In this document: positions 15,109 through 35,308 of the stretch, in pieces
How positions within the stretch are numbered: the stretch's first letter is position 1
Layout of the letters: each line of letters opens with the position of its first letter
Assembly: GCA_046759465.1 (NCBI GenBank)
Contig: JBHICH010000006.1
Coordinates: 1 to 54,272 of the forward strand
Source of the DNA: Nitrososphaerales archaeon
GTDB taxonomy: Archaea; Thermoproteota; Nitrososphaeria; Nitrososphaerales; UBA213
Length of the DNA stretch: 54,272 nt
Reading direction: 5' to 3'
Notes under the pieces: generated by a model
Told to the model about the DNA's origin: nothing
Databases searched by the model: none
The model's input: only the letters and a program-made list of their open reading frames with translations
Translations under genes and position numbers: made by a program

Positions 15109-15143
15109 TGAAAATAGTCCTACTCTTAAAAGTTTCTATGTAA

Positions 15144-16188: not shown

Positions 16189-16229
16189 TGAGCCGTGAGA
16201 ATTGTTCCTAAAAATGGACATATTGGGCT

Positions 16230-17384: not shown

Positions 17385-17385
17385 A

Positions 17386-18249
17386 CTATCTCGTAACATA
17401 TCTCAATACGTCATTTAATGGATATTTCAACCCATACTTTCTTCTGAAAAACTTGAGTAAATTTTCAATATCCCTTTTAAGTAGCAACTGAGCATTTGGG
17501 TGCTTTTTTCTAACACTTTGAGGCCAGTCTATTATCCATACATCCTTTCCATCGTAGAGCACATTGTATTCGCTCAAGTCAGCACTTATCATTCCTGCAT
17601 TATATGCCAGTCTTACATTGCTAAGGATAATTTCTAGTACTTTCTTAGGAAGATCGAGTGTATCGCATTGAATCAGCCTTGGTCCGTCTACTCGTTCCAT
17701 GACTATTGCATGCTTTGCTAATGCGTATGGCGCTGGAACCTTAACACCAGTTTTATGCAAAATCTTTAGTGCATTGAACTCCTTCTTTGCAGCATCTATG
17801 TTCACTAATAACCAGTGATGTAGTTTCATGTTGAAAGATCTTTTGCGCTTAACTTCTCTGAAACTTGTCCTTCCAATTCTGAAGAACTTGATTGCTGTAT
17901 ATTTATGGTCAGGAGTTAAAGTCTCGAAAACATCAGACTCTTTACCTACACCAATAGCTTTCCCCATTCCAATCACTATATCTTTATCAGCAAGGAACTT
18001 TAGGGCAAGTGCGTCAAGTCCAGCCATTACAAGAGAGAATCCTCTTCTGTTCCTGAATACAAGTTCCATCTGATTTAATTTGCCAACACTGAAATTTGCC
18101 TTATCAATATGCATCCTTGCTCTGCTGGCTATCTGTTCCGTGGTAAGTGATTCATGATCCTTTAGCGATGATGCTAGCGCTTTGAGCACATTGAACTCCT
18201 CTTGCTCGAGACTCTTTACAACCTTTGCAGCAACTTCAGCAGAGGACAT
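17386..18249 (-). CDS. rio2: RIO2-type atypical kinase
   Basis: N-terminal winged helix (GLDALAL), IGVGKESDV, DLSEYNV, IIDWPQ. Confidence 0.92.
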   Translation of the reverse strand: MSSAEVAAKVVKSLEQEEFNVLKALASSLKDHESLTTEQIASRARMHIDKANFSVGKLNQMELVFRNRRGFSLVMAGLDALALKFLADKDIVIGMGKAIGVGKESDVFETLTPDHKYTAIKFFRIGRTSFREVKRKRSFNMKLHHWLLVNIDAAKKEFNALKILHKTGVKVPAPYALAKHAIVMERVDGPRLIQCDTLDLPKKVLEIILSNVRLAYNAGMISADLSEYNVLYDGKDVWIIDWPQSVRKKHPNAQLLLKRDIENLLKFFRRKYGLKYPLNDVLRYVTR

Positions 18250-18326
18250 GTAATTGGTAAGTGCGTTACCTAAATTAAATTATGCTTAGCAAAATCTTTA
18301 AGCCGTTCGATTGGTAGTGAATTTAG

Positions 18327-19472: not shown

Positions 19473-19519
19473 ATACCAGCGAAAAGGATATTTCTAGTTG
19501 TTTTGTGCATTGATCTTCG

Positions 19520-20596
19520 TTGAGCAAAGTAGCGTTGGTTGCTATAACAAAACATGGAATAGAGATTGCCAGAAAGATCAAGGCAAAGACGCCGGAATTT
19601 CACATTTATGTCCCACAGAAATTTAGCGATGGAAAAGATGATATAAACTGGTACAGCGACCCTAGTCCTTTAGCAATAGGTAAGCTATTCAAGTCTTACG
19701 ATGGATTAGTTTGCATATTCTCACTTGGTGCGGCATTGAGACTGGTTGCACCTCATCTGAAGGATAAGAAGACAGATCCTGCTGTTGTGGTTATAGATGA
19801 TAAAGCAAAGTTTGTAATAAGTGCGTTATCAGGACACCTTGGCGGTGCAAATGCATTGGCAAGGTTGATTGCATCAGTACTGAATGCTACACCTGTTATC
19901 ACCACCGCGTCTGACGTTAATGAAACTATTGCTGTGGATCTCTTGGGAAGAGAGTTTGGATGGCTTACTGATGACGATCATAATGTTACAAAGGTAAGCG
20001 CATGCATGGTGAATGAAGAGAAGATTGGAATTTATCAGGATTCTGGGGAACGCAATTGGTGGTTTGTGGATCGGCCGCTGCCAACAAATGTCCAGATCTT
20101 CAACAATCTTGATGAGTTGTCAGGCTCAGATTGTAAAGCATCTCTAATAATTACAAACAAGTTGCTTGACGAAAAGTTTGAAATGCTTTTACAAAAATCA
20201 GTTGTTTACAGACCAAAAAGTTTAGTTGTTGGCTTGGGATTGCACTGGGATACAAAGAAGGACGAAATTATACAAGGCATACAAACAACATTAAAAGATG
20301 CAGGTTTAAGTTTCAAAAGCGTAAAAAATATTGCGACGATAAACAGAGAGGCAGTAGTTACGGGTCTACAAGAATTTTCCAATGAATACAAAATTCCGGT
20401 TGAATATTTTGATAAAAATCAACTTTCAAAGATCGATGTGCCTAATCCCTCTGACACGGTAAGGAAGTTCGAGGGTACACCAAGTGTCTCAGAAGCATCT
20501 GCAATGTCAAGTGCCAAGAACAATACATTGCTCATTCAAAAACGCAAGTTCCCACCAAACCTAACGGTCGCTGTAAGCGAGGTAAAGGTGAGCTGA
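19520..20596 (+). CDS. cbiG: Cobalt-precorrin-5A hydrolase
   Basis: DKKTDPAVVVID, LSGHLGGAN, PVITTASD, SVSEASA. Confidence 0.93.
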   Translation: MSKVALVAITKHGIEIARKIKAKTPEFHIYVPQKFSDGKDDINWYSDPSPLAIGKLFKSYDGLVCIFSLGAALRLVAPHLKDKKTDPAVVVIDDKAKFVISALSGHLGGANALARLIASVLNATPVITTASDVNETIAVDLLGREFGWLTDDDHNVTKVSACMVNEEKIGIYQDSGERNWWFVDRPLPTNVQIFNNLDELSGSDCKASLIITNKLLDEKFEMLLQKSVVYRPKSLVVGLGLHWDTKKDEIIQGIQTTLKDAGLSFKSVKNIATINREAVVTGLQEFSNEYKIPVEYFDKNQLSKIDVPNPSDTVRKFEGTPSVSEASAMSSAKNNTLLIQKRKFPPNLTVAVSEVKVS

Positions 20597-21354
20597 TGAA
20601 AAAAGCATTACTACTTGTAGACAGAGGCAGTAAGGAGCAGGATGTGAAGGATGAATTATATGAGATTTGTAGCATTGCTAAGAAACGTGGAGGTTACTAT
20701 TTTTCCGATTATGCATTTCTTGAGGTTATACCTCCGTACATCGGTGAAGGTATCAACTCATGTGTAAAACACGGTGCAGAATTCCTAACCATAATGCCTT
20801 ACTTCCTTTATCCGGGTTTGAAGTTAAAGTTAGCAGTAGAGCGGATCGAAAAGATTTCCAGAGACCTGGGTCTCAAATTTGCTGTAACTGATTGTCTGAG
20901 CTATCATGATAAACTGATCGATGTTGTTAGAGATAGAATCAATGAAGTTAAACAGAAAGAGCAAATCAATCACTCTGACAACGAGTGTGACATATTGTTG
21001 ATTGGCCATGGAAGCAGTGATAAAGATGCAAGAAAGGCATTCTTGTATGTTGCCGATTCAATAAAATCAACGTATAGAAACGTTGGTTTCTGTTTTCTGG
21101 AGCTTGATAGTCCTAACATAGGAGAAGGAATCAGACAGTCCTTAGACAACAACCCAAAAGCGCTGATACTTGTGCCTTACTTTTTGCATCATGGTGCACA
21201 TATCAAGCGAGATGTAAAAGAAGAGGTTAGCAAAGCATTGAAAGAATGTAATTCAAGCAATTTGTACATAGCAAGACATCTAGGTGTAGAAGGTAAGATA
21301 GTTGATGTTGTGATCGAGCGAGCGAGAGAGGTGGAGCGAAAATTTGGCATCTGA
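20596..21354 (+). CDS. cbiX: Sirohydrochlorin cobaltochelatase, two-domain CbiX
   Basis: Duplicated RGS/HGS..FLE..P..PYFL domains with H-x2-x-D motif in the second. Confidence 0.88.
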   Translation: MKKALLLVDRGSKEQDVKDELYEICSIAKKRGGYYFSDYAFLEVIPPYIGEGINSCVKHGAEFLTIMPYFLYPGLKLKLAVERIEKISRDLGLKFAVTDCLSYHDKLIDVVRDRINEVKQKEQINHSDNECDILLIGHGSSDKDARKAFLYVADSIKSTYRNVGFCFLELDSPNIGEGIRQSLDNNPKALILVPYFLHHGAHIKRDVKEEVSKALKECNSSNLYIARHLGVEGKIVDVVIERAREVERKFGI

Positions 21355-21979
21355 AAAAGCTATTGACATAGAGAAAAGAAGTATGGAAATTATTGAGGAG
21401 GAAGTTGGAAAACACAATTACAATCAACTAGAGTGGATTATAGTTCGAAGAGTAATTCATGCGACGGCAGACTTCGACTTTGCAAAACAAAATTCAATAA
21501 TATTTCACAAAGATGCAATACATTCTGCATTGAACGCAATAGTAGATAAATGTGCCATAGTGGGAGATTCAGATATTGTGCTGGCTGGTTTGAACAAGAA
21601 GAATTTGAATGATTTTGCAATCAAGTGTAGTTGCTACATATCAGATGCACAAGTTGCAGATCATGCTAAGAAACTAAACAAGACAAGAGCAGAAATGTCA
21701 ATGCGCAAAGCTGCTAGTGAAATTAACAATGGAATAGTTGCCATTGGTAATGCACCAACCGCACTTTATGAGATTATTAAGATGGTTCAAGAGAGAGTTG
21801 TTAAACCTGCACTAATAATTGGAATTCCAGTCGGTTTTGTATCAGCAGTGGAATCTAAAGAAGAACTATCGACTATGGATGTTCCATACATAACCAACAA
21901 AGGCAGAAAGGGCGGCAGCACTGTTGCAGCATCCATAATCAATGCTTTGTTTGGAATCTACCGAGATAAAATGGGTTAA
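21344..21979 (+). CDS. cbiC: Precorrin-8X methylmutase
   Basis: RRVIHATADF, IGNAPTAL, PVGFV, GRKGGS. Confidence 0.95.
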   Translation: MASEKAIDIEKRSMEIIEEEVGKHNYNQLEWIIVRRVIHATADFDFAKQNSIIFHKDAIHSALNAIVDKCAIVGDSDIVLAGLNKKNLNDFAIKCSCYISDAQVADHAKKLNKTRAEMSMRKAASEINNGIVAIGNAPTALYEIIKMVQERVVKPALIIGIPVGFVSAVESKEELSTMDVPYITNKGRKGGSTVAASIINALFGIYRDKMG

Positions 21980-23337
21980 GCCTTACTGAATTCTTTGCAA
22001 GCGAGCAACAAGTTTTCGGCCAAACTTCTGCTTGCAAAATGCATATGCATGTATGATGCCAAGGTGTTATATTCTACAAAACCATCCTTGCTGCCATTCA
22101 CCCCCTTTCCCCTGCTCAATTGATAGGCAAACTTGGAATCTCTGGGAATGTTGTCTATTCTTGAGTAATGAAACTCATGACCTCTGATAGTCTTGCCAGC
22201 TTTTGCAAGTAAACATAAGCTTGTTACTTTCGCTTCGGTATAGTTGAGTGTCAGTTTTTTGTCCATTACTGTATCACCATCAAAGAGGTTTACCATGCTA
22301 TGCTTCTTACCATCGAATTGGGTTATGCTTCTCGTTAGATACATGAGACCTCCACACTCTGCATATATTGGCATACCATCACTTGCAACCTTTCTAATGG
22401 AATTTAACATGCTGGAATTTTGTTCAAGCTTATCAGCAAGAACCTCTGGAAAGCCGCCTCCAAGATAAAGACCGTCAGCATCTGGTATGGTTTTATCATT
22501 TACTGGGCTAAAGAACTGCAGATCAGCTCCTAGGGAACGTAAAATATCTAGATTGTCAGCATAGTAGAAGTTGAATGAGTCGTCTAACGCAACAGCTATG
22601 GTTGGGCCGACCTTCTTTGATATACTGCTAACTTTAATTTTCAATTTAGGAGCTTTTTTCGCAATTGTAACTGTCTTATCAATATCTATCTGATCCTTAA
22701 CATTCCTTGCTACTGCCATTACCTTGTCAATCATGTCTCTCCTCTCGGAGGTTGGTATAAGACCCAGATGTCTTTCCTGCAGTTCTATCTCCTTGTTTCT
22801 TTTTATTGCGCCAAGCACTGGAACTTTTACCTTCTGCTTTATTGCATCGATGCAGTACTTTGCATGTTTTTCCCCTGCAACATTGTTAAGTATGAATCCT
22901 GCAATACTTATGCTTGGATCGAACTTTAGAAATCCAAGTGCAACTGCGGCAATGGATCTTGCCGCTTTGCTAGCATCAATTACTAAAACAACGGGACTCT
23001 TAAGCAGTTTTGCTATGTGAGCTGTACTAGCAAAGTCGCTTCCACCAGACAGACCATCAAAAAGTCCCATTACGCCTTCAATAACTGCAAAGTCTGCATC
23101 TTTACTTGCTTCGTTAAAACTATTCATTAGACCTTTTTCGCCCATCAACCATGGATCTAGGTTTCTAGACTGTCTATCAGTTACAGTGGTATGATAACTT
23201 GGATCTATGTAATCAGGTCCGACTTTGAAACCCTGTACCTTGTATCCTTTCTCTTGCAACCCTTTCATGATGGCTATTGAGATGCTTGTCTTTCCCACGC
23301 TGCTGGCTGTACCAGCGATGATAAGTCTAGGTATCAA
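21976..23337 (-). CDS. cbiA: Cobyrinate a,c-diamide synthase
   Basis: SSVGKT, FKVGPDYIDP, EGVMGLFDG, ERHLGL, AECGG, GHEFHYS. Confidence 0.96.
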   Translation of the reverse strand: MIPRLIIAGTASSVGKTSISIAIMKGLQEKGYKVQGFKVGPDYIDPSYHTTVTDRQSRNLDPWLMGEKGLMNSFNEASKDADFAVIEGVMGLFDGLSGGSDFASTAHIAKLLKSPVVLVIDASKAARSIAAVALGFLKFDPSISIAGFILNNVAGEKHAKYCIDAIKQKVKVPVLGAIKRNKEIELQERHLGLIPTSERRDMIDKVMAVARNVKDQIDIDKTVTIAKKAPKLKIKVSSISKKVGPTIAVALDDSFNFYYADNLDILRSLGADLQFFSPVNDKTIPDADGLYLGGGFPEVLADKLEQNSSMLNSIRKVASDGMPIYAECGGLMYLTRSITQFDGKKHSMVNLFDGDTVMDKKLTLNYTEAKVTSLCLLAKAGKTIRGHEFHYSRIDNIPRDSKFAYQLSRGKGVNGSKDGFVEYNTLASYMHMHFASRSLAENLLLACKEFSKA

Positions 23338-23522
23338 TACGGCAATAATGTTACGGTTTTTATTTATAATTATACCCAGTATATGTTGACGCCTTTCTCT
23401 TTGGAGTCCTCTTGATAAGTGTTTTAACCTCTGCGACTCTATTCCACACGGTGCTCCAAGTACGTAGTGATCTACTACAGCGTCATCAGCTGTTATGGCT
23501 TACTCTCCGAGTTGAATAAACA

Positions 23523-24533
23523 TTAAAATAATTTTTTTAATATATTCCACCAAAAATTATCCTCAAACAACACGGGATTTTCACCATCTACATTTACTTT
23601 CTTAGAAGTACGTTTAATGAAATACAGAAATACTTTACCGCAAATTTTGTAAACTTGCGATTCCGGGCTTTTAGAAACCATAGTATCCACAATACAAGGG
23701 CTGACATTTTTTAACAAGAATTTTTTTATCATATCCCTAGAAAAGTATGAAAGTTCTTGATATCTTTCGTGCATGTCTTTTAATATGTATTCTCTTGAAT
23801 TTGATAAAGAATAATGAGCGTGTTCAAGTGATTCCTCAAAAGTTCTAAGATTTCTTTCTGTTTCTGAAATGCGTATCCTCCCAACTTTCATCGCATCTCT
23901 TAATGCGTCCAAATTGTTTTCCGATTCAATCTGATTCACACATCTTCCGACAGTGGATTTCAAATGAGAGTCGCTGCCGCCGACTTTTATTTTATTATGT
24001 TTCTCAGCAAATTCTTCTGCTTTCTGATTAGAATATTCGTCAGGATTGTTGGAATTGAATACTTCGACATGATCTAATAGAACTGCGTTTCCTCGAATAC
24101 CATTTCGAACAGCAAAGGGATGAACAGCTACGGCTATGCCGTTTTTTTCTTTTATTTCCTCTAACGTTTCTTCGATAGACTGGTATGGCTTTATATAACC
24201 ATCAATGAAAAGAGCCGTGACGTGCTTGTTGCCTTCAACAGTTACTTCTTCTCCTCTATAGATTTGTATGCCCTTAAATCTCTCATGGTTATTTTTGTAG
24301 CCTATCAAGTGTCGATATCCTTGGTCTGTGTTATGATCTGTAATTACTAAAGCTTTCAAATTCTTCTTAACCATCGCATAACAAATTTGTTCTGGAGTCG
24401 TTCCGCAATCATAAGGTATACTTTTAGAATTCTGGAAATTTGAGAATACACTATGAACATGAAGTTCTGCTCTTAGTTCATATTGTACTTCTTCATAATT
24501 TCTGCCGAGTTGACTATCACTCTTGGTTGTCAT
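23523..24533 (-). CDS. PHP-domain metal-dependent phosphoesterase
   Basis: ELHVHS, ITDHN, GEEV, AVHPF, GGSDSH motifs. Confidence 0.88.
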   Translation of the reverse strand: MTTKSDSQLGRNYEEVQYELRAELHVHSVFSNFQNSKSIPYDCGTTPEQICYAMVKKNLKALVITDHNTDQGYRHLIGYKNNHERFKGIQIYRGEEVTVEGNKHVTALFIDGYIKPYQSIEETLEEIKEKNGIAVAVHPFAVRNGIRGNAVLLDHVEVFNSNNPDEYSNQKAEEFAEKHNKIKVGGSDSHLKSTVGRCVNQIESENNLDALRDAMKVGRIRISETERNLRTFEESLEHAHYSLSNSREYILKDMHERYQELSYFSRDMIKKFLLKNVSPCIVDTMVSKSPESQVYKICGKVFLYFIKRTSKKVNVDGENPVLFEDNFWWNILKKLF

Positions 24534-24654
24534 GCTATCTAATTCTCATCTAGAACTCCAAAATTAATAGTTACTCTTCATGGTCCTGAACTTCGTTGAC
24601 GCGTGTTAAAGGAAAGTTACTTTCGTTATCTTTTTCCTGTGATAAGAAATAGTA

Positions 24655-24670
24655 TTGGCATAACCAATTC
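24655..24670 (+). repeat. Boundary motif copy 1, TTGGCATAACCAATTC
   Basis: 14/16 identical to the reverse complements of 28945-28960 and 30962-30977. Confidence 0.6.
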
Positions 24671-24732
24671 GAAAGTATCAGAATATCTGAATAAATTGAA
24701 GTCATGAGGTAAGAGCAGGTTCGACATTCTCA

Positions 24733-25125
24733 TCATCTCGCCTTCGGAGGTTTAAATCCATGCTTTCTTAATTCCTTGTAGACATCGCTCTGAGCCCAGC
24801 AGAAACCTATGTGATCGCAATCATCTGTCTTATCTTCCCTACACCACAACATACGCTCTCCTCCGTGAATCTCCACATCTATAGTACTTTTGCTGAAATT
24901 ATCATAAATCAGGAATGTAGGGCCAGAGGAGCCTATCCACTTGAAAGGCGCGTATCTTCTAATGTAATCCTTGTTATCAAGGACCCAGTCTAAAACCTCA
25001 TTGACATACGTGCCAAGAGTGGCGGATTTGGGATACTTGTCCCTCTCGGCATTGAAGCCTTGCTTAAGTTTCGATACAACATCAGGCCGTATAGAGACGT
25101 TCTTCCAACCTTTTTGTAAGGGCAT
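24733..25125 (-). CDS. Putative DNA-binding regulator: RHH-like N-terminus plus C-terminal C-x7-C-x-H Zn-type motif
   Basis: WKNVSIRPDVVSKLK (strand-helix) and WCREDKTDDCDHIGFC; divergent from the PolB2 cassette. Confidence 0.6.
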   Translation of the reverse strand: MPLQKGWKNVSIRPDVVSKLKQGFNAERDKYPKSATLGTYVNEVLDWVLDNKDYIRRYAPFKWIGSSGPTFLIYDNFSKSTIDVEIHGGERMLWCREDKTDDCDHIGFCWAQSDVYKELRKHGFKPPKAR

Positions 25126-25234
25126 ACCTTAGGATTACTAAGGTTATCTAATACTTATTGTTTATGGTATGAATAAGTATCCCTAAAAGTATCTAGGATC
25201 GTTTTAAATATTAGTATACCTTAGGTGACCTTAG
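25126..25234. promoter_or_regulatory. Divergent promoter with four ACCTTAG boxes and inverted AATAAGTAT elements
   Basis: ACCTTAG at 25126, 25218 and 25228, CTAAGGT at 25138; ATACTTATT 25151 / AATAAGTAT 25172; TTTAAATA at 25203. Confidence 0.65.
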
Positions 25235-25235
25235 T

Positions 25236-26000
25236 GTGATAATACTGCCATCGCGGCAAGAATCTCGTATAGATTCACTGAAACGTTACCCAATTAAATT
25301 CTACCACGCTTTTGCATTAATAGGATTAAATTCAGGTATTACGGAACTGGATAAACTGCTTGGTTTCATACCAAAAGGTAAAGTAGTATTTATCAAAGGT
25401 TCGCAATCACGCAAACACATACTCAAATCATTTTGTTTAAGAGCTATATCGCAATATCACAACTACTGCATATTCATTGATGGTGGTAACAGCTTCGATC
25501 CATACATATTATCAAAACTTGCTACTGTCAGCAAACAGAATCCTAAAGAAGTATTGAGTAGAGTGATAATCTCCAGAGCATTCACTTGCCATCAATTAGC
25601 ATCATTGATAGTAAAAGAAACAGGAAAGATTGTTGAGGCATATACAACGAATCTAGTAGTAGTTTCCGATATTCTGTATTTGTTCACAGATCCAGAGTCA
25701 GAGATCGATAAGTATGAAACTGAAATGATTCTTCCAAAGATGTTAAAGTGTCTTACTAATCTAGCAAAGCAAAAAGATAGTATTGTAATAATCACTTCGG
25801 ATAATAGCAGTGCTTGGTTAAGCAGGATGGTAGAATCTTTCTCAGATATTGCTTTAGTGGTGAATAATGATAATGGAATGATCAGTGTAAGCTTGAACAA
25901 GCATCCATTTCTTCCTCATGCTTCTACTACGTTTACCTTGGAGCTTCAACCAGAGAAGAAAATAGCGAAGCTTGAATCGTGGATGATGATAAATGGGTAG
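25236..26000 (+). CDS. RecA/Rad51-like protein with degenerate Walker A (PolB2-associated, ImuA-like)
   Basis: SGITELDKLLG, FIDGGNSFDPY, ISRAFTCHQL; P-loop reads KGSQSRKH. Confidence 0.8.
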   Translation: MIILPSRQESRIDSLKRYPIKFYHAFALIGLNSGITELDKLLGFIPKGKVVFIKGSQSRKHILKSFCLRAISQYHNYCIFIDGGNSFDPYILSKLATVSKQNPKEVLSRVIISRAFTCHQLASLIVKETGKIVEAYTTNLVVVSDILYLFTDPESEIDKYETEMILPKMLKCLTNLAKQKDSIVIITSDNSSAWLSRMVESFSDIALVVNNDNGMISVSLNKHPFLPHASTTFTLELQPEKKIAKLESWMMING

Positions 26001-26268
26001 AACAATTCCGTCGTTCAGAATGCTGATAAATATAGAAATGGCGAGATGGAAAGAATTCCGAAACCAGCTCTCAAGTGAAGATAAAACGATATTTGATGAA
26101 CTCATGAATAACAGCAAGCTTCACTCATCAGCATCCTCTTGTGCATTGAGAACGAATGTGTTTGAAGGTTTGTGTATGGCGATCCTACTAGACCATCAAA
26201 GACGACTAGAAGCTCTTGCTACAGAGTTGGAGCAATTGCATCTAGGTGCCAGCAATGAAAAGATTTGA
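25993..26268 (+). CDS. Small alpha-helical PolB2-associated protein (arCOG07300-like), copy 1
   Basis: MGRTIPSFR...W..FR..L...DK.IFDEL signature; overlaps neighbouring genes. Confidence 0.75.
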   Translation: MGRTIPSFRMLINIEMARWKEFRNQLSSEDKTIFDELMNNSKLHSSASSCALRTNVFEGLCMAILLDHQRRLEALATELEQLHLGASNEKI

Positions 26269-26494
26269 TGAAGAAATTCAGGGATGGCAAGGTTTTCTTA
26301 ATGCACTGCGAGCAGATGACAGAGTTGTCTTCCGAAGGATGCTAATTGATTTACAAAAATACGCAGAAGTAATAGGTCAGCAAGAAAATCCTACAGAAAC
26401 ACTAGTCGTTGCTATACTGTTGCAACAGTACAAAATCATAAAATGGCTTGAAACAGAGATGCAAAAACTGAAGCTCAAATTAAAGGAGAGTTAA
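26255..26494 (+). CDS. Small alpha-helical PolB2-associated protein, copy 2 (truncated paralogue)
   Basis: EIQGWQGFLNALRADDRVVF...AILLQQ aligns with copy 1; AGGTG upstream of ATG 26255. Confidence 0.7.
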   Translation: MKRFDEEIQGWQGFLNALRADDRVVFRRMLIDLQKYAEVIGQQENPTETLVVAILLQQYKIIKWLETEMQKLKLKLKES

Positions 26495-26496
26495 GA

Positions 26497-28761
26497 TTGG
26501 TTGAAGGCTGGATACTAGACCTCCATCCTAATCCGAAGCAAGGTGGAGAGATGATAGTATGGTTAAAGCAAAGAAACGGACAAGCAACAAGTCTGATCGA
26601 TAAATGGAGTCCATCGATCTATGTTTCTGCAGATAGCAAGGAAGATTTTGACAGTGTGCTAAGAAATCCAGAAGTTAGGTTGCTTATTTCTGATCATGGG
26701 TTTGAATATAAAATTGCTGAAATTACTGAGAAGGAACCAAAAAATGTTCTACGATTAACACCAAAGCATCCCAGAGATATGATTAAACTTGCAAAATCGA
26801 TTTTTAATTCCAGTCCATACGGAAGATACGAGATCTACAATGCTGACATAGACCCTGCACAGATCTACATGTATGAACATGACCTATTTCCATTAGCATA
26901 TGTCAAAGCAGATGTTTGTAATGATAGCATTCTATGGAAGATGCTGGATTCGATAGAAAGCACCGATTATGAGTTACCCTCCTTCACCAAGTTGCATCTT
27001 AGGGTAAAGCATAACAAGCGAAATTTGCTGGTAAGCATCATAGATCCCATACAATCCATTGAGATGGTATCAGACAATGGGAGGTTTGTAATCGATGGTA
27101 GTGAGGAGCGCATTTTGTTGAGCGCGGTTCAAGAAGTCCAGAGGCTTGATCCCGATATAGTATTCACGAATGACGGTGACGCGTTTCTTGTTCCAAGTTT
27201 GTTGGAGAGAGCTAGAGTGAAGGGTCTGTCTGAAAAGATGGCCTTTGGACGAGATGGTCAAGCACTAGCATTACCATGGCGAAGAGGCTCGATCTACTTT
27301 TCATATGGCAAGGTGATCTACAAACCAAGGCCAGCTAGATTCCTTGGCAGGATTCACATCGATACTGCGAACGCATTCGTTTATGCTGAATGCGGTCTAG
27401 AAGGAGTCATAGAAGTTGCTAGAACTTGTAGAGTTCCTTTAGATACTACAGCAAGAGCATCCATCGGAAGAATCATGACAAGTATAGAATTTTACTATGC
27501 ATACAGGGATGGCATCCTTATTCCCTGGAAGCCAACTCTAGCAGAACGTTTCAAGAATGGATGGGACTTGATGGTTGGAGATAGAGGAGGATTCATCTTC
27601 GAACCAAAGGTTGGAGTGCATGATAACGTAGGCGGGATCGATTTCTCCTCCCTCTATCCCACACTGATGTTTAAGAACAATATTAGTGCGGAAACAATTG
27701 GTTGTGATTGCTGTCCAGACTCCAGTATAAGAGTTCCAGAACTTGATTATAATATTTGTGAAAAGAGAGTTGGAATAATTTCAAAGGCTCTTGATTTACT
27801 GCTGCAGAAAAGAGCAAGATATAAAGAGCTTAAGAAATCTGTGCAAGATAAGGATACAAGGATAGTATATGATCGCAGACAAAATGCATTGAAGTGGGTT
27901 CTTGTCTCATGCTTTGGTTATCTTGGATTTAGGAATGCAAAGTTTGGGAGAATAGATGCCCATATGACAGTTTGTGCATTTGCTAGAAAGGCATTGTTTG
28001 ATGCTGTGAAGATTGCCGAGAATAATGCATATGAGATTATACATGGCATCGTTGATTCATTATGGTTAAAGAAGCGAAATGCGGAAGAGGAAGATTACAT
28101 CGAACTTTGTTCGCTAATCAAGGAAGCGACTGAATTACCCATATCATTCGAAGGGGTATACAAATGGATAGCATTTCTGCCATCGAAGATGTATGATGGA
28201 CTTCCTGTTATCAACAGATACTTTGGCGTATTCAAGAATGGAGAGATTAAGACACGTGGAATAGAAGCCAGAAAGCATGACACACCAGAATTTATCAGAA
28301 GATGCCAGCTGGAGATGTTAAAGATATTGGCTAAGTACCCTAATTCTGATCAGGTTAAGGAGCATCTTATGGAGGCTGTAAAGGTTCTTGCAAAGTATCT
28401 TAAGCTGCTTGAAGATAGACAAGTGTCTATTGAAGATCTCGTCATCAATAAACGCCTTAGCAAAAGTGCATCAGATTACAAGAAAGATATTCTTCAAGCA
28501 ATAGTTTCTAAACAGCTTGCTAACGATGGGAGAGAGCTTGTTGCTGGTCAAGTAATAAGTTACATAATAACTGACTTCTATAACAAGAATCCAGAGAAGA
28601 GGGCACTTCATATTGACTTGCTGAGGGACAACTCGGAATATGATGTAAGAAAATATTCAAAAATGCTAATTGATTCTGCTAACACAATTCTAACTCCGTT
28701 TGGCTTAGTAGATCCTCTGCAATCCAAACTTTACCCACACAAAAGCAGTTGGAGAAGATAA
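26497..28761 (+). CDS. polB2: Family B DNA polymerase, PolB2 (Dpo2-like) group
   Basis: Motif A IDFSSLYP, motif B QNALKWVLVSCFGYLG, motif C HGIVDSLW instead of YGDTDS, KTRGIEARK; eroded exonuclease motifs. Confidence 0.9.
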   Translation: MVEGWILDLHPNPKQGGEMIVWLKQRNGQATSLIDKWSPSIYVSADSKEDFDSVLRNPEVRLLISDHGFEYKIAEITEKEPKNVLRLTPKHPRDMIKLAKSIFNSSPYGRYEIYNADIDPAQIYMYEHDLFPLAYVKADVCNDSILWKMLDSIESTDYELPSFTKLHLRVKHNKRNLLVSIIDPIQSIEMVSDNGRFVIDGSEERILLSAVQEVQRLDPDIVFTNDGDAFLVPSLLERARVKGLSEKMAFGRDGQALALPWRRGSIYFSYGKVIYKPRPARFLGRIHIDTANAFVYAECGLEGVIEVARTCRVPLDTTARASIGRIMTSIEFYYAYRDGILIPWKPTLAERFKNGWDLMVGDRGGFIFEPKVGVHDNVGGIDFSSLYPTLMFKNNISAETIGCDCCPDSSIRVPELDYNICEKRVGIISKALDLLLQKRARYKELKKSVQDKDTRIVYDRRQNALKWVLVSCFGYLGFRNAKFGRIDAHMTVCAFARKALFDAVKIAENNAYEIIHGIVDSLWLKKRNAEEEDYIELCSLIKEATELPISFEGVYKWIAFLPSKMYDGLPVINRYFGVFKNGEIKTRGIEARKHDTPEFIRRCQLEMLKILAKYPNSDQVKEHLMEAVKVLAKYLKLLEDRQVSIEDLVINKRLSKSASDYKKDILQAIVSKQLANDGRELVAGQVISYIITDFYNKNPEKRALHIDLLRDNSEYDVRKYSKMLIDSANTILTPFGLVDPLQSKLYPHKSSWRR

Positions 28762-28944
28762 AAATTGGACATTTTGGACATTTTCGGATTTATCAGAGTT
28801 TTTAATTTCAATTAAATTAGCAATTTCAAGAGCAGAGAGACTATTTAAATGGCTTTAACGGAACATCTAACCTCACCCTGCCTTTGTGTGGCAAAACGAC
28901 ATCGACTTTTTATTTAAGACTGTCATGGATAGGTAAAGTTTTAC

Positions 28945-28960
28945 GAATTGGGTTTGCCAA
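28945..28960 (-). repeat. Boundary motif copy 2 (reverse complement TTGGCAAACCCAATTC); weaker + copy at 28888-28905
   Basis: Lies between the convergent 3' ends of polB2 and the methyltransferase. Confidence 0.5.
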
Positions 28961-29091
28961 ATCTTATTTAAACTTGTCTTTCGGGGGCTCTGTCAAGTCT
29001 TTAGCTGTAAAAATTCATCTGTAAAAAATTGCGTAGGGGTGATGCAGACACCCTAATGGCTTCTACCGTATGTTTTATTTAAATAACTTGT

Positions 29092-29904
29092 TTACTGCTT
29101 TTTCGCCCAGACCCTAAAGGTAAGTGCATAGAGAAGAGGAAAGTCCTGTCTTTTTGTATACTTCCGCAATTCCTTGCACATCTTCTGAAATTGAATTCTA
29201 GACATGATTCTATTTTTCAAAAGATTTTCTTTGAGTATCTCTGCCATTAGAATACTAATCTTGTTGACAGAAATGTCATTCATTGGAACACAAACAAAGT
29301 AAGCACCAACACTTGGATTCAATCCAACCTTTGCGAAAAATTTGTACAGATCCCTAGCTATGAACGGATCTGAACCTGCAAGTTGTGCAAGTTTGATATA
29401 TGATTGTGTCAGACGCTCTACATCTGGGTCATATGGATATGACAGCCAAGAGCCATGAACGAATTCCTCCGTCGCTACAATTCCACCTTTACGAGTTATC
29501 CTCAACATCTCTTTCAACGCTCTTTGAGGATCTGTTAGATGCTGAAACAAGAATCGTGAGAACACAAAATCGAAGGAGGAATCTTTAAACTTCGTATCAT
29601 AAACACCCGCAAGAACAAACTTTACATTATTGATACCTTTTCTAGCAACCCTTCTTTTACAGATTCTTATGCGCTCTTGGTTTACGTCTAAACCAATAAC
29701 TTCGCCGCTTTTGCCAACGAGATAACCAAGCAACAGACTAGTGGTACCTGTTCCACATCCGAGATCAAGGCATCGCATTCCTTTTTTAATACCAGCGAGC
29801 CTCAGTGTTTGCAAGGTTTCTTTTTCGAAAATTCTAGCCTGAATGTCTAATCTCTTGACTTCTTGATTAGTGCTTCCCAAGACGTAATTCATTTTGGCAG
29901 ACAT
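29092..29904 (-). CDS. Class I SAM-dependent methyltransferase
   Basis: CLDLGCGTG, GLD, SFDFVFSRFLFQHL, LR..RKGG. Confidence 0.92.
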   Translation of the reverse strand: MSAKMNYVLGSTNQEVKRLDIQARIFEKETLQTLRLAGIKKGMRCLDLGCGTGTTSLLLGYLVGKSGEVIGLDVNQERIRICKRRVARKGINNVKFVLAGVYDTKFKDSSFDFVFSRFLFQHLTDPQRALKEMLRITRKGGIVATEEFVHGSWLSYPYDPDVERLTQSYIKLAQLAGSDPFIARDLYKFFAKVGLNPSVGAYFVCVPMNDISVNKISILMAEILKENLLKNRIMSRIQFQKMCKELRKYTKRQDFPLLYALTFRVWAKKQ

Positions 29905-29977
29905 ATCACTGCTTATATTATGCGGATAATTAAATTAAATTTCGTTTTCTTTCTCACACTACACGTCATCTTTCGTC

Positions 29978-30511
29978 TTACAACTTTTTGGCAGATTCTA
30001 AATTAGACAGCAGTTCGTTAATGGAACTGCGTAATTCAGACAACTTCATATTTTGAAACTTAGATAGTTTATTCGCTTCCCTTTCAGCAAGATTCTGGTG
30101 AGTGTATATTGGTGCTGTATAAAACCTCAATATCTGTTCATTGATGGAATTTGACTCTCTAAGTAGAAGGTAAACATCAGCTATTTCAGTTTGTAATGTC
30201 TCTGACAACAGGCTAAAATTCCCTGAATTTACAGCACTGTCATGTGCTGGCGTCGATACTGTCAGGTAGCTACCTTTGAATTGTTGTGTTGAACTATCCC
30301 ATTTCATCTCAACAGGATTCGTAGGGTCATTTATTACTCTTTGCGCAACTTTTAACTCTTCTATTAATGAATCTATAGTGTGCTTCGTGGTATGTTTAAT
30401 TTCTTCTTCTTTCTTTCTTCTGTCCCACCACATAGCAGCTCCTAGGCCTAACGCCGCGCCTGCTATAGTTGCAACAAAATGGACAATAAAATCTTCAATT
30501 ATCGTTGACAT
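29978..30511 (-). CDS. Hypothetical protein with N-terminal TM anchor
   Basis: FVATIAGAALGLGAAMWW followed by RRKK; TTTATAAA about 25 nt upstream of ATG 30511. Confidence 0.65.
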   Translation of the reverse strand: MSTIIEDFIVHFVATIAGAALGLGAAMWWDRRKKEEEIKHTTKHTIDSLIEELKVAQRVINDPTNPVEMKWDSSTQQFKGSYLTVSTPAHDSAVNSGNFSLLSETLQTEIADVYLLLRESNSINEQILRFYTAPIYTHQNLAEREANKLSKFQNMKLSELRSSINELLSNLESAKKL

Positions 30512-30732
30512 AATACGGACAATCGATGGGTGTTTATAAATTTCTATACTGGGCTCCACGATACGCATCATTCAGCTACCTCTTCTTACGCATAATCACC
30601 CGTTCTGTACTACATGGACTGCACCAGAAATGACTGGGCTTACCCTTCCTAGCTAGCTCAGGCATGCTAGTCAGATTATCGAGAAAATATTGGCTCAGAT
30701 TCATTCACTTTTTTAGGCTTCAAAAAGTAACT

Positions 30733-30957
30733 TTAGGAAGTGTTCTTTTTCTTTAGGAACTCTTCCATTCGTTCATCTATTAATTCTGGCAGCTTATCTC
30801 GCAATAAATCATCTGCTATCTTACTAGCTTCCTCTCTAATCTTCCTATCAGTATATGTCTTGTACGTTCTCAGTTTTTCGACTTCATCACTAAGTGCTTG
30901 TATCTGCATATCCTTGCGTTCCTGCTCTTCCACATCTAGCAGCGTAAAGAATGTCAA
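30733..30957 (-). pseudogene. Coiled-coil fragment, possibly the C-terminal remnant of a larger (integrase-like) gene
   Basis: Charged heptad-like sequence; frame stays open upstream to about 31000 with no good start; at the island edge. Confidence 0.3.
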
Positions 30958-30961
30958 TGCA

Positions 30962-30977
30962 GAATATGTTATGCCAA
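30962..30977 (-). repeat. Boundary motif copy 3 (reverse complement TTGGCATAACATATTC)
   Basis: 14/16 identical to copy 1; at the right edge of the island. Confidence 0.6.
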
Positions 30978-31042
30978 AATATGAACCTCTAAAACCATAA
31001 CAAGTGCATACGGTTTATTTAAAACTGAAGCTAGTCTTATGT

Positions 31043-32425: not shown

Positions 32426-32592
32426 AGCCCTTACTTAGAAAATGTACAGTTTGTAATCTGTACACATTGAAGAAGGCGTGCCCAAAGTGTGGTTCGCAAA
32501 CTTACAATCCTCACCCAGCAAAGTTTTCCCCTGATGATAAATATGCCAGATACAGAACAATTGATAGATACAAGGAAATGCCTAGCTCTTAA
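32422..32592 (+). CDS. nop10: H/ACA RNP protein Nop10 (not in ORF track)
   Basis: MKPLLRKCTVCNLYTLKKACPKCGSQTYNPHPAKFSPDDKYARYR; typical position after aIF2alpha. Confidence 0.95.
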   Translation: MKPLLRKCTVCNLYTLKKACPKCGSQTYNPHPAKFSPDDKYARYRTIDRYKEMPSS

Positions 32593-35308
32593 TCATGTAG
32601 GCTTTTTCGATTATCACATCTATTACTGGAATATTTCTTTCATCTCTTGGTAGCATCACTATATCATCCACTAAATCCATACCCTCAACGACCTTTCCAA
32701 AGATTGTATATTTGCCATCCAAATGTGGTGCATCCTTAACAACAATGAAGAACTGTGAACCAGCAAGGTTGGGATCCCCTGGATGGGCCATGGAAACAAT
32801 GCCTCTAGCATGTGTCATACTGCTTATCTCTGCTGGAATTGTGTATCCAGGTCCGCCTGTTCCCCATGTTGATCTAGGTTCTGTCTTTGTGTTTGGGTCT
32901 CCTCCCTGTATGACAAAGTTTGGTTCTATTCTATGGATCTTTATGCCGTTATAGAATCCAGAGTCTATAAGTCTCTTGAAGTTCTCGACTGTCTTTGGAG
33001 CTATATCTGGCAATAGCTCTATTATTATATTATCAGATGGAGATCCTCGAACGCTAATCTGAAGTGTTGCATATTCTTTTAGAGGGTCTAATCGCGTTAC
33101 GATCTCCCTTTCAGCTTTTTCTACTGGCTTGATCTGTTCTTCCAATACTTCATAAACTAGGGCAGCAAACATCAACCGTTCATCATCGTTCACGAAACTT
33201 GGTGACGCATGAAGTAATCTAAGCGGTTCACTGCCATCTGTTGAATATTTTATCTGCTTCACATACACTGGCACATACCCAGATCTATATTCTGGTTGCA
33301 GATCTGTTGGTCTTCCCTGCTCATCCAACTGAACATACGCAGCTGGTTCGAATGGGAACAACTTGCCAAGCAAGGTATCGTTCCAAAATAGTGGTGTTGG
33401 TGTGAATCCGTCATCCTCAAGATACTTATTCTCATCAACTCCTGCAATTCTCATGAACCAATGCTTTTTACTCTCATCACCGCCTCCACCGAGCACATAA
33501 AAAGTGGAACCATCTGGTAGTTGTGCTCTTTGACCAACTACATACACAAGAACGTAATCAGCATCTAGATCCTTGAGTATATTTAGCCCTGTCTGCTCAT
33601 CAGAAACAAGCACTTTAGCTATCTGCTCGATTCTAGTTGAGTTTATTGTGGCATTATCTGCCAAACTTATTCTATCTCCAAGTGTTGTTATCCAGTAACC
33701 GTAGTCCCACCAGGAAGCAATTATGGCGTCTGGCTCTGTGTTATTCTTGATCCAATCCATAGTTTCTGTCCAGTCATCTGTTGATACTCTAAATCCTGTA
33801 GCGCCATTAGCGATACTTGGAGGAATATCAGCACTGGATAACCAGCTTCCATCTGGAGGGTAGAACATTGGCAAGGCTAACATCGTAATCATAATCGCTG
33901 TGTATGCAATTCTAAAGTCCTTACCAAATGTTGGTTTAATCTTGACCTTCTTTTTTGGATGTGTAGGTGGTGCTGTCCTAGCATATATTGATGTTGTAAT
34001 TTCAAATAATGCTATTGCTGCAAGCGTAATTATTGCTATTGAAGAGTAGACCATCAGTCTTGAAACTGATGCGCTGACATAGATTGCTGTTATTCCAAGT
34101 ATAAGGGCAAATATCGTCATATCGTTTCTATTTCTAAAGCAAAGTCTTACACCATAGCCAGCAAGTAAAATGAGTATCGAGTAATTTATGAAATAATCAA
34201 CAATCGTGGGTGTGAAGTGTTCAGCAACAGACTCTATCAGTGGAATCTCACTCTTGCTGAAGGGGCTGATTACTGCTATGTATCTAAAGCTCGGAGGAAC
34301 ATATGATCCTGCTGCAACAAATGACACGCCACCGATAATAAATGCGCCTAACCAAGCAAGAGTATTTCTTAACTGATGCATTGAAGCGCTGTAACGCCGT
34401 ACCAAGTGCGCAACTATAAGGAAGATTGCGGGAGCTATCAATGCTAAGCCTGCCAGTGACACCGCAAATGTCTCTCCAGGCCTTGGAAATGATGATGCTA
34501 CTGCCACTGTTAAAATGGTAAATATTGTTACAGCGTACATTGCTGATTTTGTATCCTTTCTAAAGAATGGCAATGATATGAAGAATAATCCTAACAATAA
34601 AATGAAGTATTGAACTCCTCCCCATGCGGTCATGGCAAAGCCAAGTATCAGTCCTCCTGCCGCGGCTTTAGCTAGCCCAAACTGCACTTCTCTATCGTTT
34701 AATGCAGACAGAGTACCTGTAGTGAGAAATTTTCCATCGCTATGCTTTAGTGCACTCAGTAAAAGATAGATTGCAAGTAAAGCAAGAAAAAGGCCCAATG
34801 GCTCGGACTTGAACCACCCCAAATTACCTCTTTGTATTATTGCAGGAGAAACCGCAAAAAAAAGAGCCGCAAATAAGCCAGCTGTTGTATTTGATATCAC
34901 TCTAACAAAAGCGAACATTACAATTGCTGTAAATGAGCCAAAGACAACTGGGAACCATACTACAAAATCATAGAGTGGTGCTCCTGCACCAAATGCCTTG
35001 TAGAGGTACGCTGCGGAAAGATGCAATCCTGTTTGAGAAGTTTCCGCAACTGGTCTTCCTTCTGGGTACCATGACCTCGTATCATGCCATGCAAAGTATT
35101 CTGATACACCATTTTCAACTAAAAATTGTGTAGCCCTGTAGTCAAAATATGGATCAAATTCATTAAGATATAATCCATATTGCAATGGAAGAGAGCGCAT
35201 CATAAATCCTGTAGCAAATGCTAACGCCAATACTGCAATTACTAGCATATGTTTTCTCGTGAACTTGAAACCTAGAAAGTCTAGTTTTATCGGCTGATCT
35301 GGTTCCAT
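32582..35308 (-). CDS. aglB: Oligosaccharyltransferase AglB (STT3) fused to a C-terminal cyclophilin-type PPIase
   Basis: EFDPYF, SVAEH, WWDYG, DNAT; C-terminal PKTVENF..FY....HRI..NFVIQGGDP..SMA..GSQFFI..HLDGKYTIFGKV. Confidence 0.92.
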   Translation of the reverse strand: MEPDQPIKLDFLGFKFTRKHMLVIAVLALAFATGFMMRSLPLQYGLYLNEFDPYFDYRATQFLVENGVSEYFAWHDTRSWYPEGRPVAETSQTGLHLSAAYLYKAFGAGAPLYDFVVWFPVVFGSFTAIVMFAFVRVISNTTAGLFAALFFAVSPAIIQRGNLGWFKSEPLGLFLALLAIYLLLSALKHSDGKFLTTGTLSALNDREVQFGLAKAAAGGLILGFAMTAWGGVQYFILLLGLFFISLPFFRKDTKSAMYAVTIFTILTVAVASSFPRPGETFAVSLAGLALIAPAIFLIVAHLVRRYSASMHQLRNTLAWLGAFIIGGVSFVAAGSYVPPSFRYIAVISPFSKSEIPLIESVAEHFTPTIVDYFINYSILILLAGYGVRLCFRNRNDMTIFALILGITAIYVSASVSRLMVYSSIAIITLAAIALFEITTSIYARTAPPTHPKKKVKIKPTFGKDFRIAYTAIMITMLALPMFYPPDGSWLSSADIPPSIANGATGFRVSTDDWTETMDWIKNNTEPDAIIASWWDYGYWITTLGDRISLADNATINSTRIEQIAKVLVSDEQTGLNILKDLDADYVLVYVVGQRAQLPDGSTFYVLGGGGDESKKHWFMRIAGVDENKYLEDDGFTPTPLFWNDTLLGKLFPFEPAAYVQLDEQGRPTDLQPEYRSGYVPVYVKQIKYSTDGSEPLRLLHASPSFVNDDERLMFAALVYEVLEEQIKPVEKAEREIVTRLDPLKEYATLQISVRGSPSDNIIIELLPDIAPKTVENFKRLIDSGFYNGIKIHRIEPNFVIQGGDPNTKTEPRSTWGTGGPGYTIPAEISSMTHARGIVSMAHPGDPNLAGSQFFIVVKDAPHLDGKYTIFGKVVEGMDLVDDIVMLPRDERNIPVIDVIIEKAYMIKS

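Follow-up and report, generated by a model that had tools for sequence, protein, structure and literature searches.

A PolB2 mutasome operon with two PPB2 genes in a lineage-specific insertion of a Nitrososphaerales archaeon

To our knowledge, no multi-subunit family-B translesion polymerase other than the PolB2 mutasome has been proposed for prokaryotes, and the composition of this complex is based on modelling alone. In bacteria, the ImuA-ImuB-DnaE2 system consists of a family-C polymerase, a dead family-Y accessory subunit and a RecA-like protein without activity. The archaeal PolB2 (Dpo2) operon has the order iRadA-PPB2(arCOG07300)-PolB2, with tightly coupled genes (PMC4104785, PMC11791011). 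According to the sections of these two reports that deal with the operon, PolB2 has lost its exonuclease site and carries Ile at the first Asp position of motif C, iRadA has neither ATPase motifs nor the N-terminal domain, and a clamp-binding-like motif is present on iRadA and not on PolB2. The small subunit, a helical protein of roughly 90 aa, has a conserved N-terminal MGRT arm, which is found on one copy only when two PPB2 genes are present. A parallel to the UmuD'2C-RecA complex of E. coli Pol V has also been drawn (PMC11791011): in both systems the polymerase binds a RecA/Rad51-family protein via an oligomerisation-like motif, and the N-terminal arm of the small subunit points toward the active site.

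We analyzed a candidate operon of this kind in a Nitrososphaerales archaeon (the window, that is, the whole stretch of DNA analysed, comprises 54,272 nt). The open reading frame list contains four co-oriented ORFs on the + strand at 25236-28761, encoding 254, 91, 82 and 754 aa. The features of the locus are as follows.

25236..26000, + strand: iRadA, a RadA/Rad51-core paralogue that lacks the N-terminal domain and has inactive Walker A and B motifs
25993..26268, + strand: PPB2a, a small helical subunit of the arCOG07300 kind with an N-terminal MGRT arm
26246..26494, + strand: PPB2b, a PPB2a paralogue without the arm
26497..28761, + strand: PolB2, a family-B polymerase whose exonuclease site is lost and whose motif C reads HGIVDS
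25965..25985, + strand: PCNA-interaction-like C-terminal motif of iRadA (AKLESWM, followed by MING and the stop codon)
25126..25235, unstranded: divergent promoter region with ACCTTAG repeats and a TATA-like box
24733..25125, - strand: p130, a candidate ribbon-helix-helix regulator with a C-terminal Cys/Cys/His domain, divergent from the operon
23338..31003, unstranded: cbiA-cobA insertion of 7.67 kb, containing a PHP-domain gene, p130, the four-gene cassette, a methyltransferase gene and two small genes

The iRadA and PPB2a ORFs overlap by 8 nt, PPB2a and PPB2b by 23 nt if PPB2b starts at GTG and by 14 nt if it starts at the ATG three codons downstream, and PPB2b and PolB2 are separated by 2 nt. 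The preliminary description of this DNA had seen four overlapping or abutting genes and read them as a mutasome-like cassette; both the layout and the gene identities proved right, and the gene set and order are those of the published iRadA-PPB2-PolB2 operon. Its statement that PolB2 genes are linked with arCOG07300 and RadA-like genes likewise matches the association reported in PMC4104785. The tight coupling and the sequence features of the published operon given above recur here as well, and nothing in the locus differs in kind from the system as those sections present it. The locus is very probably a member of this operon type in its duplicated-PPB2 form, located in a lineage-specific 7.7-kb insertion and representing flexible-genome content that is not self-mobile. 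Its particulars are a Nitrososphaeria host without PolD, an insertion site flanked by cobalamin genes, and, as divergent neighbour, a ribbon-helix-helix-like gene instead of the Orc1/Cdc6 or LexA genes whose enrichment near such operons has been reported.

The earlier comparison with imuA-imuB-dnaE2 holds insofar as both are analogous damage-tolerance cassettes combining an inactive RecA-like protein, an accessory subunit and an error-prone polymerase. It does not extend to the components: a family-B polymerase and a predicted small helical trimer stand here against the family-C polymerase and dead family-Y subunit there. Neither a family-C DnaE2 nor a family-Y-like ImuB was found at the locus with Pfam and NCBIfam, and no family-Y model matches the small proteins; the two cassettes resemble each other by analogy and not by homology. 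Similarly, the family-Y polymerase, UmuD' dimer and active RecA of Pol V are not encoded in this cassette.

The genomic context was compared with that of seven other genomes of the family. The cbiA and cobA genes adjoin in five of them, with a spacing of 19-235 bp in G003, G004, G005, G006 and G007 compared with 7,666 bp in the window. An inversion interrupts the junction in G002, and cbiA was not found in G001. Other genes of the island are absent or located elsewhere in the relatives searched. The preliminary description had placed the cassette on an island and considered it transferable; the insertion relative to kin is supported, the mobility is not. An actively transferable unit that moves between genomes and loci and was recently acquired here would agree with the empty cbiA|cobA junction in these five relatives, with four other contexts of the cassette in G001 to G004 (a different place in each genus, the only flank common with the window being p130 in G001), with its patchy occurrence (15 of 40 genomes of the order, including the window genome, G000, and 4 of the 7 other family genomes), and with the frequent PolB2 transfers among TACK archaea inferred in section 3.1 of PMC11791011. 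However, this reading appears rather improbable. No integrase, transposase, recombinase or phage-like gene was detected among the island proteins scanned with Pfam (eight proteins), NCBIfam (eight), PADLOC (nine) and PHROGs (eight). The repeats found were all short (14-29 nt, 76-94% match), with no direct or terminal inverted pair bracketing 23338-31003, and the G+C content of the island does not shift from that of the rest of the window. ARAGORN predicted no tRNA gene in the window, and the single Rfam tRNA match (8362-8433) lies far from the junction. Contigs from three DNA runs of one study, two of these runs perhaps being those from which this DNA comes, span the whole stretch, and no contig skips the island or joins across it. 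None of the runs recorded as RNA was listed as containing the stretch. Moreover, PolB2 sequences of the family form one clade (support 100), and their identities to the window protein (67-72%) track those of eIF2-gamma, cbiA and cobA (69-84%); the tree is consistent with inheritance within the family. In another Nitrososphaerota clade, the cassette occupies a fixed site beside tRNA-Leu(CAG) in five of the seven loci scanned for tRNAs (two of them with short flanks).

Several other ideas about the island were also pursued. A defence or phage origin was considered, and PADLOC and PHROGs gave nothing telling; the PADLOC 'homing endonuclease' match of PolB2 comprises polymerase residues only. The PHP-domain neighbour is unlinked to the cassette in relatives, and the idea that it acts as a proofreader in trans was dropped for this reason. 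In addition, a 91-nt stretch with a repeat at 30577-30665 folds no better than shuffled sequences on either strand, and no Rfam family scored above chance there.

The divergent promoter region between p130 and the operon contains four of the five ACCTTAG sites of the window. An inverted repeat, ACCTTAG-N5-CTAAGGT, adjoins the p130 start; the region also contains the TATA-like box TTTAAATATT, and the direct repeat ACCTTAGGTGACCTTAG lies immediately before the iRadA start. G001 retains the four sites and the TATA-like box despite a 22-base deletion between them, and p130 (83% identity) is located beside the cassette in that genome too. The AF2 model of p130 has a mean pLDDT of 91.9, and residues from about 3 to 58 match ribbon-helix-helix domains with modest Z scores of 4-5.8 (below 6); a Foldseek search of the fold against the PDB gave no match at E ≤ 0.001. 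Residues C95, C103 and H105 do not vary across 50 sequences. p130 may be a ribbon-helix-helix regulator of the operon. Genes of the p130 family were found near just four distinct loci among those scanned. A bolder proposal is that the four genes make up a damage-tolerance cassette complete in itself, which has changed place or been exchanged among Nitrososphaeria time and again with no recombinase of its own, and which has here gained p130 as a dedicated ribbon-helix-helix/zinc regulator acting on ACCTTAG operators. We regard it as quite improbable; if true, it would provide the first candidate DNA-damage-response switch in ammonia-oxidising archaea, and a fixed 1:2 PPB2a:PPB2b trimer would be an adaptation guaranteeing exactly one arm per polymerase.

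The iRadA protein matches the Pfam Rad51 family (3.7e-10), and its 254 residues align to the core of RAD51 alone. In the alignment to solved RAD51, GKT of Walker A is replaced by GSQ and the Walker B Asp by Ser, which bears out the RecA fold with a broken P-loop described earlier. All 10 aligned iRadA sequences have lost GKT and share a 2-residue deletion at the same place, while the RadB-like protein of the same window (15144-15839) keeps GASASGKT. The C-terminal AKLESWM of iRadA resembles the C-terminal tails of FEN1 (RTLEQWFN), PolB1 (SKLEDFFFDN) and PolY (DTLSKFMDKKT) of the same genome, and its [IL]-E-x-W-[LMV] core is conserved in all five iRadA sequences of the family. By this resemblance the tail appears to be a PCNA-interaction-like motif, through which iRadA may bind PCNA.

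The two small proteins were assigned to the arCOG07300 kind by motif, size, position and likeness to the single-copy PPB2 of the same operon type. They are paralogous, as had been proposed: BLASTP aligned them with 30% identity over 70 aa (E 3e-10), and a profile-profile comparison with hhalign gave a probability of 98.6% (E 9.6e-16, 78 columns), with the alignment running from PPB2a residue 12 on. PPB2a begins with MGRTIPSFR, in which M1-G2-R3-T4 and P6-S7-F8-R9 are invariant in 19 of 19 aligned PPB2a sequences; the MGRT arm is present in none of 20 aligned PPB2b sequences. The tandem paralogues had been singled out as notable, but PPB2 duplications with the arm on one copy only were already in print (PMC11791011, section 3.3.1). 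Among 92 scanned loci, the order iRadA-PPB2a-PPB2b-PolB2 was observed in 22 (20 distinct sequences); the two-PPB2 form thus counted comprises 20 distinct Nitrososphaerota-type loci and no Bathyarchaeia-labelled one, and a single PPB2 occurs in 47 loci, mostly of Bathyarchaeia. In the PolB2 tree labelled by PPB2 form, the 'single' label included L122 (no partner gene), L013 (PPB2b-like only) and L045, L069 and L096 (iRadA only); L023 and L024, which repeat the L004 and L007 sequences, were left out, and rows with matches shorter than 600 residues were dropped.

A heterodimer of the two small subunits had also been suggested. The published models favour a PPB2 trimer over a dimer, and the best full-complex models contain exactly one arm-bearing PPB2 copy (PMC11791011). 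Our model of a trimer of one PPB2a and two PPB2b chains agrees with these: it reached an ipSAE of 0.78 (0.77-0.78 in three runs) as against 0.00 for the best of three controls, although the 1:2 composition is not told from 2:1 or from homotrimers. Of the solved complexes, 116 of 157 attained the ipSAE mark, as did 2 of 215 mismatched pairs; these counts are only a rough guide for the trimer because it was modelled with alignments of our own and as a three-chain job. The trimer runs share at least 95% of contacts with partner pLDDT of 75-76; the PPB2 fold, seen within the complex model, has pLDDT of 75-84, and residues 1-18 of PPB2a lie outside the trimer interface. A 1:2 PPB2a:PPB2b trimer is supported by this modelling. 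Alternatively, PPB2b might act apart from a trimer with PPB2a, as a homotrimer of its own or as a competitor of PPB2a, for example a regulator of complex assembly. Homo- and heterotrimers do model with similar confidence (PMC11791011, section 3.3.1), but such a role is distinctly unlikely in view of the gap between the 1:2 model and its controls, the single arm-bearing copy in the best full complexes, and the gene pair itself, which is always adjacent, overlapping and in the order a then b in the 20 distinct loci.

The best NCBIfam model for PolB2 is PRK05761.1-2 (1.3e-117), at a score below the equivalog cut-off (394 versus 516 bits). Comparison with the solved PolB chain 5mdn_A revealed the changes of ExoI DxE to RxK and of YGDTDS to HGIVDS. 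In the 12 aligned PolB2 sequences, which share 41-72% identity, D382 of motif A, K466 of motif B and the second motif C Asp, D520, are invariant, and the first motif C Asp is replaced by Ile in all; the earlier account of a polymerase with HGIVDS, an eroded exonuclease and both essential Asp residues was thus accurate. D362-R363, about 155 residues before motif C, are also invariant in the 12 sequences and, judging by spacing, may correspond to the published 253-DK-254 of the Sulfolobus protein, which precedes 401-IID-403 and belongs to a D(K/R) loop motif contacting the PPB2 arm (PMC11791011). The older view of the PolB2 group, namely a catalytically dead protein in a complex with structural or regulatory function at stalled forks or origins, could appeal to the Ile in motif C, the missing exonuclease site and the inactivation proposed in PMC4104785, but is highly unlikely, since Dpo2 of Sulfolobus islandicus, in which a substitution of this kind (IID) is present, is reported to be active and to be required for damage-induced mutagenesis (PMC8764526, PMC7390963, PMC11791011) and the motif A, B and second motif C residues remain invariant at such divergence.

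Taking the locus as a PolB2 mutasome operon, literature and modelling together suggest how its products might act. PolB2 would be an active polymerase without proofreading that extends primer ends opposite lesions or mismatches. The preceding insertion step would probably be performed by the Y-family polymerase of the genome, which encodes PolB1 as well. PolB2 would bind iRadA via a RadA-oligomerisation-like motif, and the trimer of one PPB2a and two PPB2b would dock on PolB2-iRadA so that the single MGRT arm of PPB2a enters the cleft between them, giving a putative PolB2 : iRadA : PPB2-trimer heteropentamer. Recruitment by PCNA might occur through the C-terminal motif of iRadA. At the weakest step of this scheme, expression of the operon may be controlled by p130 through the ACCTTAG repeats.

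The find is real but largely ordinary; it extends a described system by a further lineage and genomic context and leaves the picture of it unchanged. The four genes with their motifs, the paralogy of the small proteins, the MGRT arm on one copy and the conservation of the four-gene unit across the order are established for this locus. The contribution of this analysis is the locus count of the two-PPB2 form, the 1:2 trimer model, the iRadA tail motif and the p130/ACCTTAG repeats. Overall, the gene identities, the mutasome and the insertion of the preliminary description are retained, and the mobility and the novelty of the tandem small subunits are not. What a single gene does in other lineages is fixed in two genes in the Nitrososphaeria form, which therefore offers a natural test of the idea of one arm per trimer. 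The iRadA tail that matches the clamp-binding tails of its own genome and the operator-like repeats beside a small DNA-binding-like gene are two further leads that can be tested cheaply.

A tie between PolB2 and the loss of PolD was also considered. PolD was not found in any of the eight family genomes, and three PolD-less genomes of f8 gave no PolB2 match. PolB2 occurs both in genomes with PolD matches (such as G012, G015, G021, G023, G025 and G030) and in PolD-less ones, and no link was apparent. As for the host itself, its closest named relative is a Candidatus Nitrosomirales MAG.

The cassette consists of four forward-strand genes that overlap or abut one another, as the preliminary description had stated: iRadA (an ATPase-dead RadA paralogue), two small helical subunits, PPB2a with and PPB2b without an N-terminal MGRT arm, and PolB2. 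The iRadA and PPB2a genes share 8 nt and the PPB2a and PPB2b genes 23 nt; PPB2b and PolB2 are separated by 2 nt. A further gene, p130, diverges from them.

Genes of the cassette and its divergent neighbour
24733-25125, - strand: p130, divergent from the cassette, 110 bp away
25236-26000, + strand: iRadA, ORF, 254 aa
25993-26268, + strand: PPB2a, ORF, 91 aa
26246-26494, + strand: PPB2b, ORF, 82 aa
26497-28761, + strand: PolB2, ORF, 754 aa

What that description reported seeing was borne out in full. Its RecA-fold protein with a broken P-loop is iRadA, whose Pfam Rad51 match (3.7e-10) is limited to the ATPase core; aligned with solved RAD51, its Walker A has GSQ versus GKT and its Walker B Asp is replaced by Ser. 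When 10 iRadA sequences were aligned with the RadB-like protein encoded elsewhere in the window (15144-15839), which has GASASGKT, none of the 10 retained GKT and all had a common two-residue deletion at that position. Judged by sequence similarity, PPB2a and PPB2b are paralogues, as had been proposed (BLASTP, 30% identity, E 3e-10; hhalign, 98.6% probability, E 9.6e-16). PolB2 matches Pfam DNA_pol_B (7.6e-37) and NCBIfam PRK05761.1-2 (1.3e-117, under the equivalog cut-off). The eroded exonuclease, the HGIVDS motif and both essential Asp residues claimed for it were also recovered: compared with solved archaeal PolB, ExoI DxE has become RxK and motif C YGDTDS has become HGIVDS, while motif A (DFSSLYP) is retained. 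In all 12 aligned PolB2 sequences D382, K466 and D520 are invariant, and Ile replaces the first motif C Asp.

This cassette is the published PolB2 operon in its known duplicated-PPB2 variant. The association of PolB2 with arCOG07300 and an inactivated RadA was first noted by Makarova and co-workers (PMC4104785), and an in-depth analysis by Timinskas, Timinskas and Venclovas (PMC11791011) introduced the names iRadA and PPB2 together with a modelled PolB2:iRadA:PPB2-trimer pentamer. The latter source reports that PPB2 is duplicated in some operons, in all of which only one copy carries the N-terminal MGRT, and that in its best modelled complexes just one member of the trimer bears the arm. Here, PPB2a begins with MGRTIPSFR and PPB2b lacks MGRT; all 19 aligned PPB2a sequences have identical arm residues, which none of the 20 PPB2b sequences carries. 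The tandem paralogues are real, but this feature, singled out earlier as notable, is already described in PMC11791011. What this study adds is the lineage pattern of the duplication, model support for a mixed trimer, a host-matching clamp-binding-like tail, a candidate local regulator accompanied by conserved operator-like repeats, and a documented insertion site.

We scanned 92 PolB2 loci (one in the window, 11 in relatives and 80 in public genomes) with PPB2a, PPB2b and iRadA profiles. The full order iRadA-PPB2a-PPB2b-PolB2 was found at 22 loci (20 distinct, L023 and L024 being repeats of L004 and L007), a single arm-bearing PPB2 at 47, iRadA only at three, a PPB2b-like gene only at one, and no partner inside the available flanks at 19. 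Titled two-PPB2 loci are labelled Nitrososphaerota, Thaumarchaeota, Nitrosomirales, Nitrosopumilales, Thermoproteota or 'uncultured archaeon', and none of these two-PPB2 loci bears a Bathyarchaeia label. A FastTree phylogeny of 85 PolB2 rows groups 56 of them, the Bathyarchaeia-type sequences, in a single clade (support 99); the remaining 29 fall outside and include every one of the 20 two-PPB2 rows. With an unsure root on the long PolB1 branch and some labelling flaws, the PPB2-number label needs three changes on this tree, two of them forced by well-supported branches. The pattern is consistent with one old PPB2 duplication on the Nitrososphaerota branch and some later losses.

Two other groups of loci deserve mention. 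A Nitrososphaeraceae-type PolB2 clade (L078, L080, L089, L090, L093, L098, L100 and L122) has no iRadA or PPB2 gene in flanks of up to ~3.5 kb on each side; any partners of these 'orphan' PolB2 genes would lie elsewhere. In L080, a 303-aa gene, maybe of the DUF72 kind by eye from its first residues, lies immediately downstream of PolB2. Three single-PPB2 operons (L088, L096 and L040) are placed deep within the Bathyarchaeia clade; the titles of their contigs name bacterial MAGs in two cases and Nitrososphaerota in the third. The L088 PolB2 differs very little from Bathyarchaeia sequences. Possible explanations are mis-binning and recent transfer.

Sulfolobus islandicus Dpo2 is reported to be damage-induced and without proofreading, to extend mismatched or lesion-opposed primer ends, and to be required for targeted mutagenesis (PMC8764526, PMC7390963, PMC11791011). 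By analogy, PolB2 here probably has the same activity and role. The same genome contains PolB1 and a Y-family polymerase, so an inserter-extender pairing as in Sulfolobus is plausible. No PolD match was found in this genome (95.6% complete), in agreement with what PMC10811736 reports for Nitrosomirales. None of the eight family genomes yielded the PolD large subunit (PF03833), against 21 with it among the 40 genomes of the order; in G030, a match to the N-terminal domain of that subunit (G030:C3:4652-8052) and the PolB2 gene are ~400 bp apart and share a strand.

Modelled as one PPB2a and two PPB2b chains, the trimer scored 0.78 (0.77-0.78 over three runs; best of three controls, 0.00). Of 157 solved complexes 116 reach the score mark, as do 2 of 215 mismatched pairs; these counts apply only roughly to a three-chain job with custom alignments. 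At least 95% of contacts agree between runs, and partner pLDDT is 75-76. The modelling supports a mixed PPB2a-PPB2b trimer, of 1:2 or another ratio. PPB2a residues 1-18 lie outside the modelled interface, so the arm is left free, as the published model (PMC11791011) requires. The iRadA C-terminus, AKLESWMMING, resembles tails from the same genome (FEN1 RTLEQWFN, PolB1 SKLEDFFFDN, PolY DTLSKFMDKKT), and its [IL]-E-x-W-[LMV] core is retained in five of five family iRadA sequences; no such motif was found in the PolB2 tail. A clamp-binding-like motif on iRadA rather than PolB2 fits PMC11791011, which locates the clamp motif more often on iRadA.

The island location was confirmed by comparison with relatives. 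Divergent cbiA and cobA are 7,666 bp apart in the window versus 19-235 bp in five other family genomes (G003-G007), where the surrounding cbiG-cbiX-cbiC-cbiA|cobA-eIF2alpha-STT3 block is otherwise collinear. Between the two genes the window has a PHP-domain gene, p130, the cassette, a methyltransferase gene and two small genes. In G002 (L020, G002:C28:1-18500), the block from a 470-aa gene to cbiA (window ~9025-23337) is inverted, which breaks the junction and leaves cbiA and cobA 13 kb apart without an insertion; cbiA was not found in G001. A search of five family genomes (G001-G004 and G006) showed the other insertion genes to be absent or elsewhere. In G001-G004 the cassette occupies four other contexts, at edges of blocks collinear with other contigs of our genome. 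With the junction closed in five relatives and the cassette in four other contexts, the locus is therefore flexible-genome content. The PHP-domain phosphoesterase gene (23523-24533; PHP_C 1.2e-12) has its only close homologue among five family genomes in G004 (83% identity, split over two other contigs). Just upstream of a 197-aa gene, a ~60-80-nt repeat (30577-30665) has four other copies in the genome (C42, C70, C23 and C1; 90-98% identity), three copies adjoining genes with signal-peptide-like product starts. Its predicted folding is no better than that of shuffled sequences, Rfam gives no match, and in one metagenome run the bin that contains it is ~three times as deep as its neighbours.

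The simpler reading of this locus is inheritance within the family, with relocation and loss. The five PolB2 sequences of the family group in one clade (support 100), and well-supported pairs agree between single-gene trees (G015 with G030 in both); these trees disagree on the place of G021, one compositionally odd long branch. The cassette may also have been exchanged among close kin. For the transferable module proposed earlier, the search gave no evidence of a mobile element: no recombinase among the insertion genes, no bracketing repeats, no G+C shift at the insertion and no island-less variant in contigs of three DNA runs were detected. Nor does sequence comparison point to recent transfer, family PolB2 identity to the window (67-72%) being in line with that of eIF2-gamma (77-84%), cbiA (69-79%) and cobA (74-78%). 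Another Nitrososphaerota clade has a fixed place for the cassette, directly after tRNA-Leu(CAG) (L018, L033, L036, L048, L067 and L070) and often before tRNA-Thr(GGT) (four loci).

The p130 protein belongs to no Pfam or NCBIfam family and has 105 representatives of ~130 aa in a large library, with C95, C103 and H105 invariant across 50 aligned sequences. Its predicted structure (mean pLDDT 91.9) gave no Foldseek match; in a full scan of PDB representatives with residues ~3-58, ribbon-helix-helix domains dominate the list (Z 4-5.8), including TraM, NikR, ParD, MazE, PutA, omega and SvtR, a consistent set with modest scores. It looks like an undescribed small ribbon-helix-helix-like family of Nitrososphaeria with an invariant Cys...Cys-x-His, multicopy in kin (four matches in G001, six in G003). 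Four of the window's five ACCTTAG sites fall within the p130-iRadA intergenic region: an inverted pair adjoins the p130 start, and a direct pair sits between the TATA-like TTTAAATATT and the iRadA start. Among the relatives, p130 adjoins the cassette in G001 alone (83% identity); there the TATA-like box and each of the four sites are retained, although 22 intervening bases are missing. G002-G004 have neither p130 nor ACCTTAG sites at the cassette. Near the scanned loci, p130-family genes occur at only four distinct ones. That p130 regulates the cassette is a tentative lead, which we rate as somewhat less likely than not.

Elsewhere in the window, an Rfam tRNA match at 8362-8433 (29.9 bits; gathering score 29), with no ARAGORN prediction, could represent an archaeal tRNA that is atypical or contains an intron. 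In a 908-aa protein (32582-35308), an STT3 oligosaccharyltransferase domain is fused with a cyclophilin-type prolyl isomerase domain at the C-terminus (Pfam 3.2e-35 and 1.3e-46, respectively), a fusion retained in G003 and G005.
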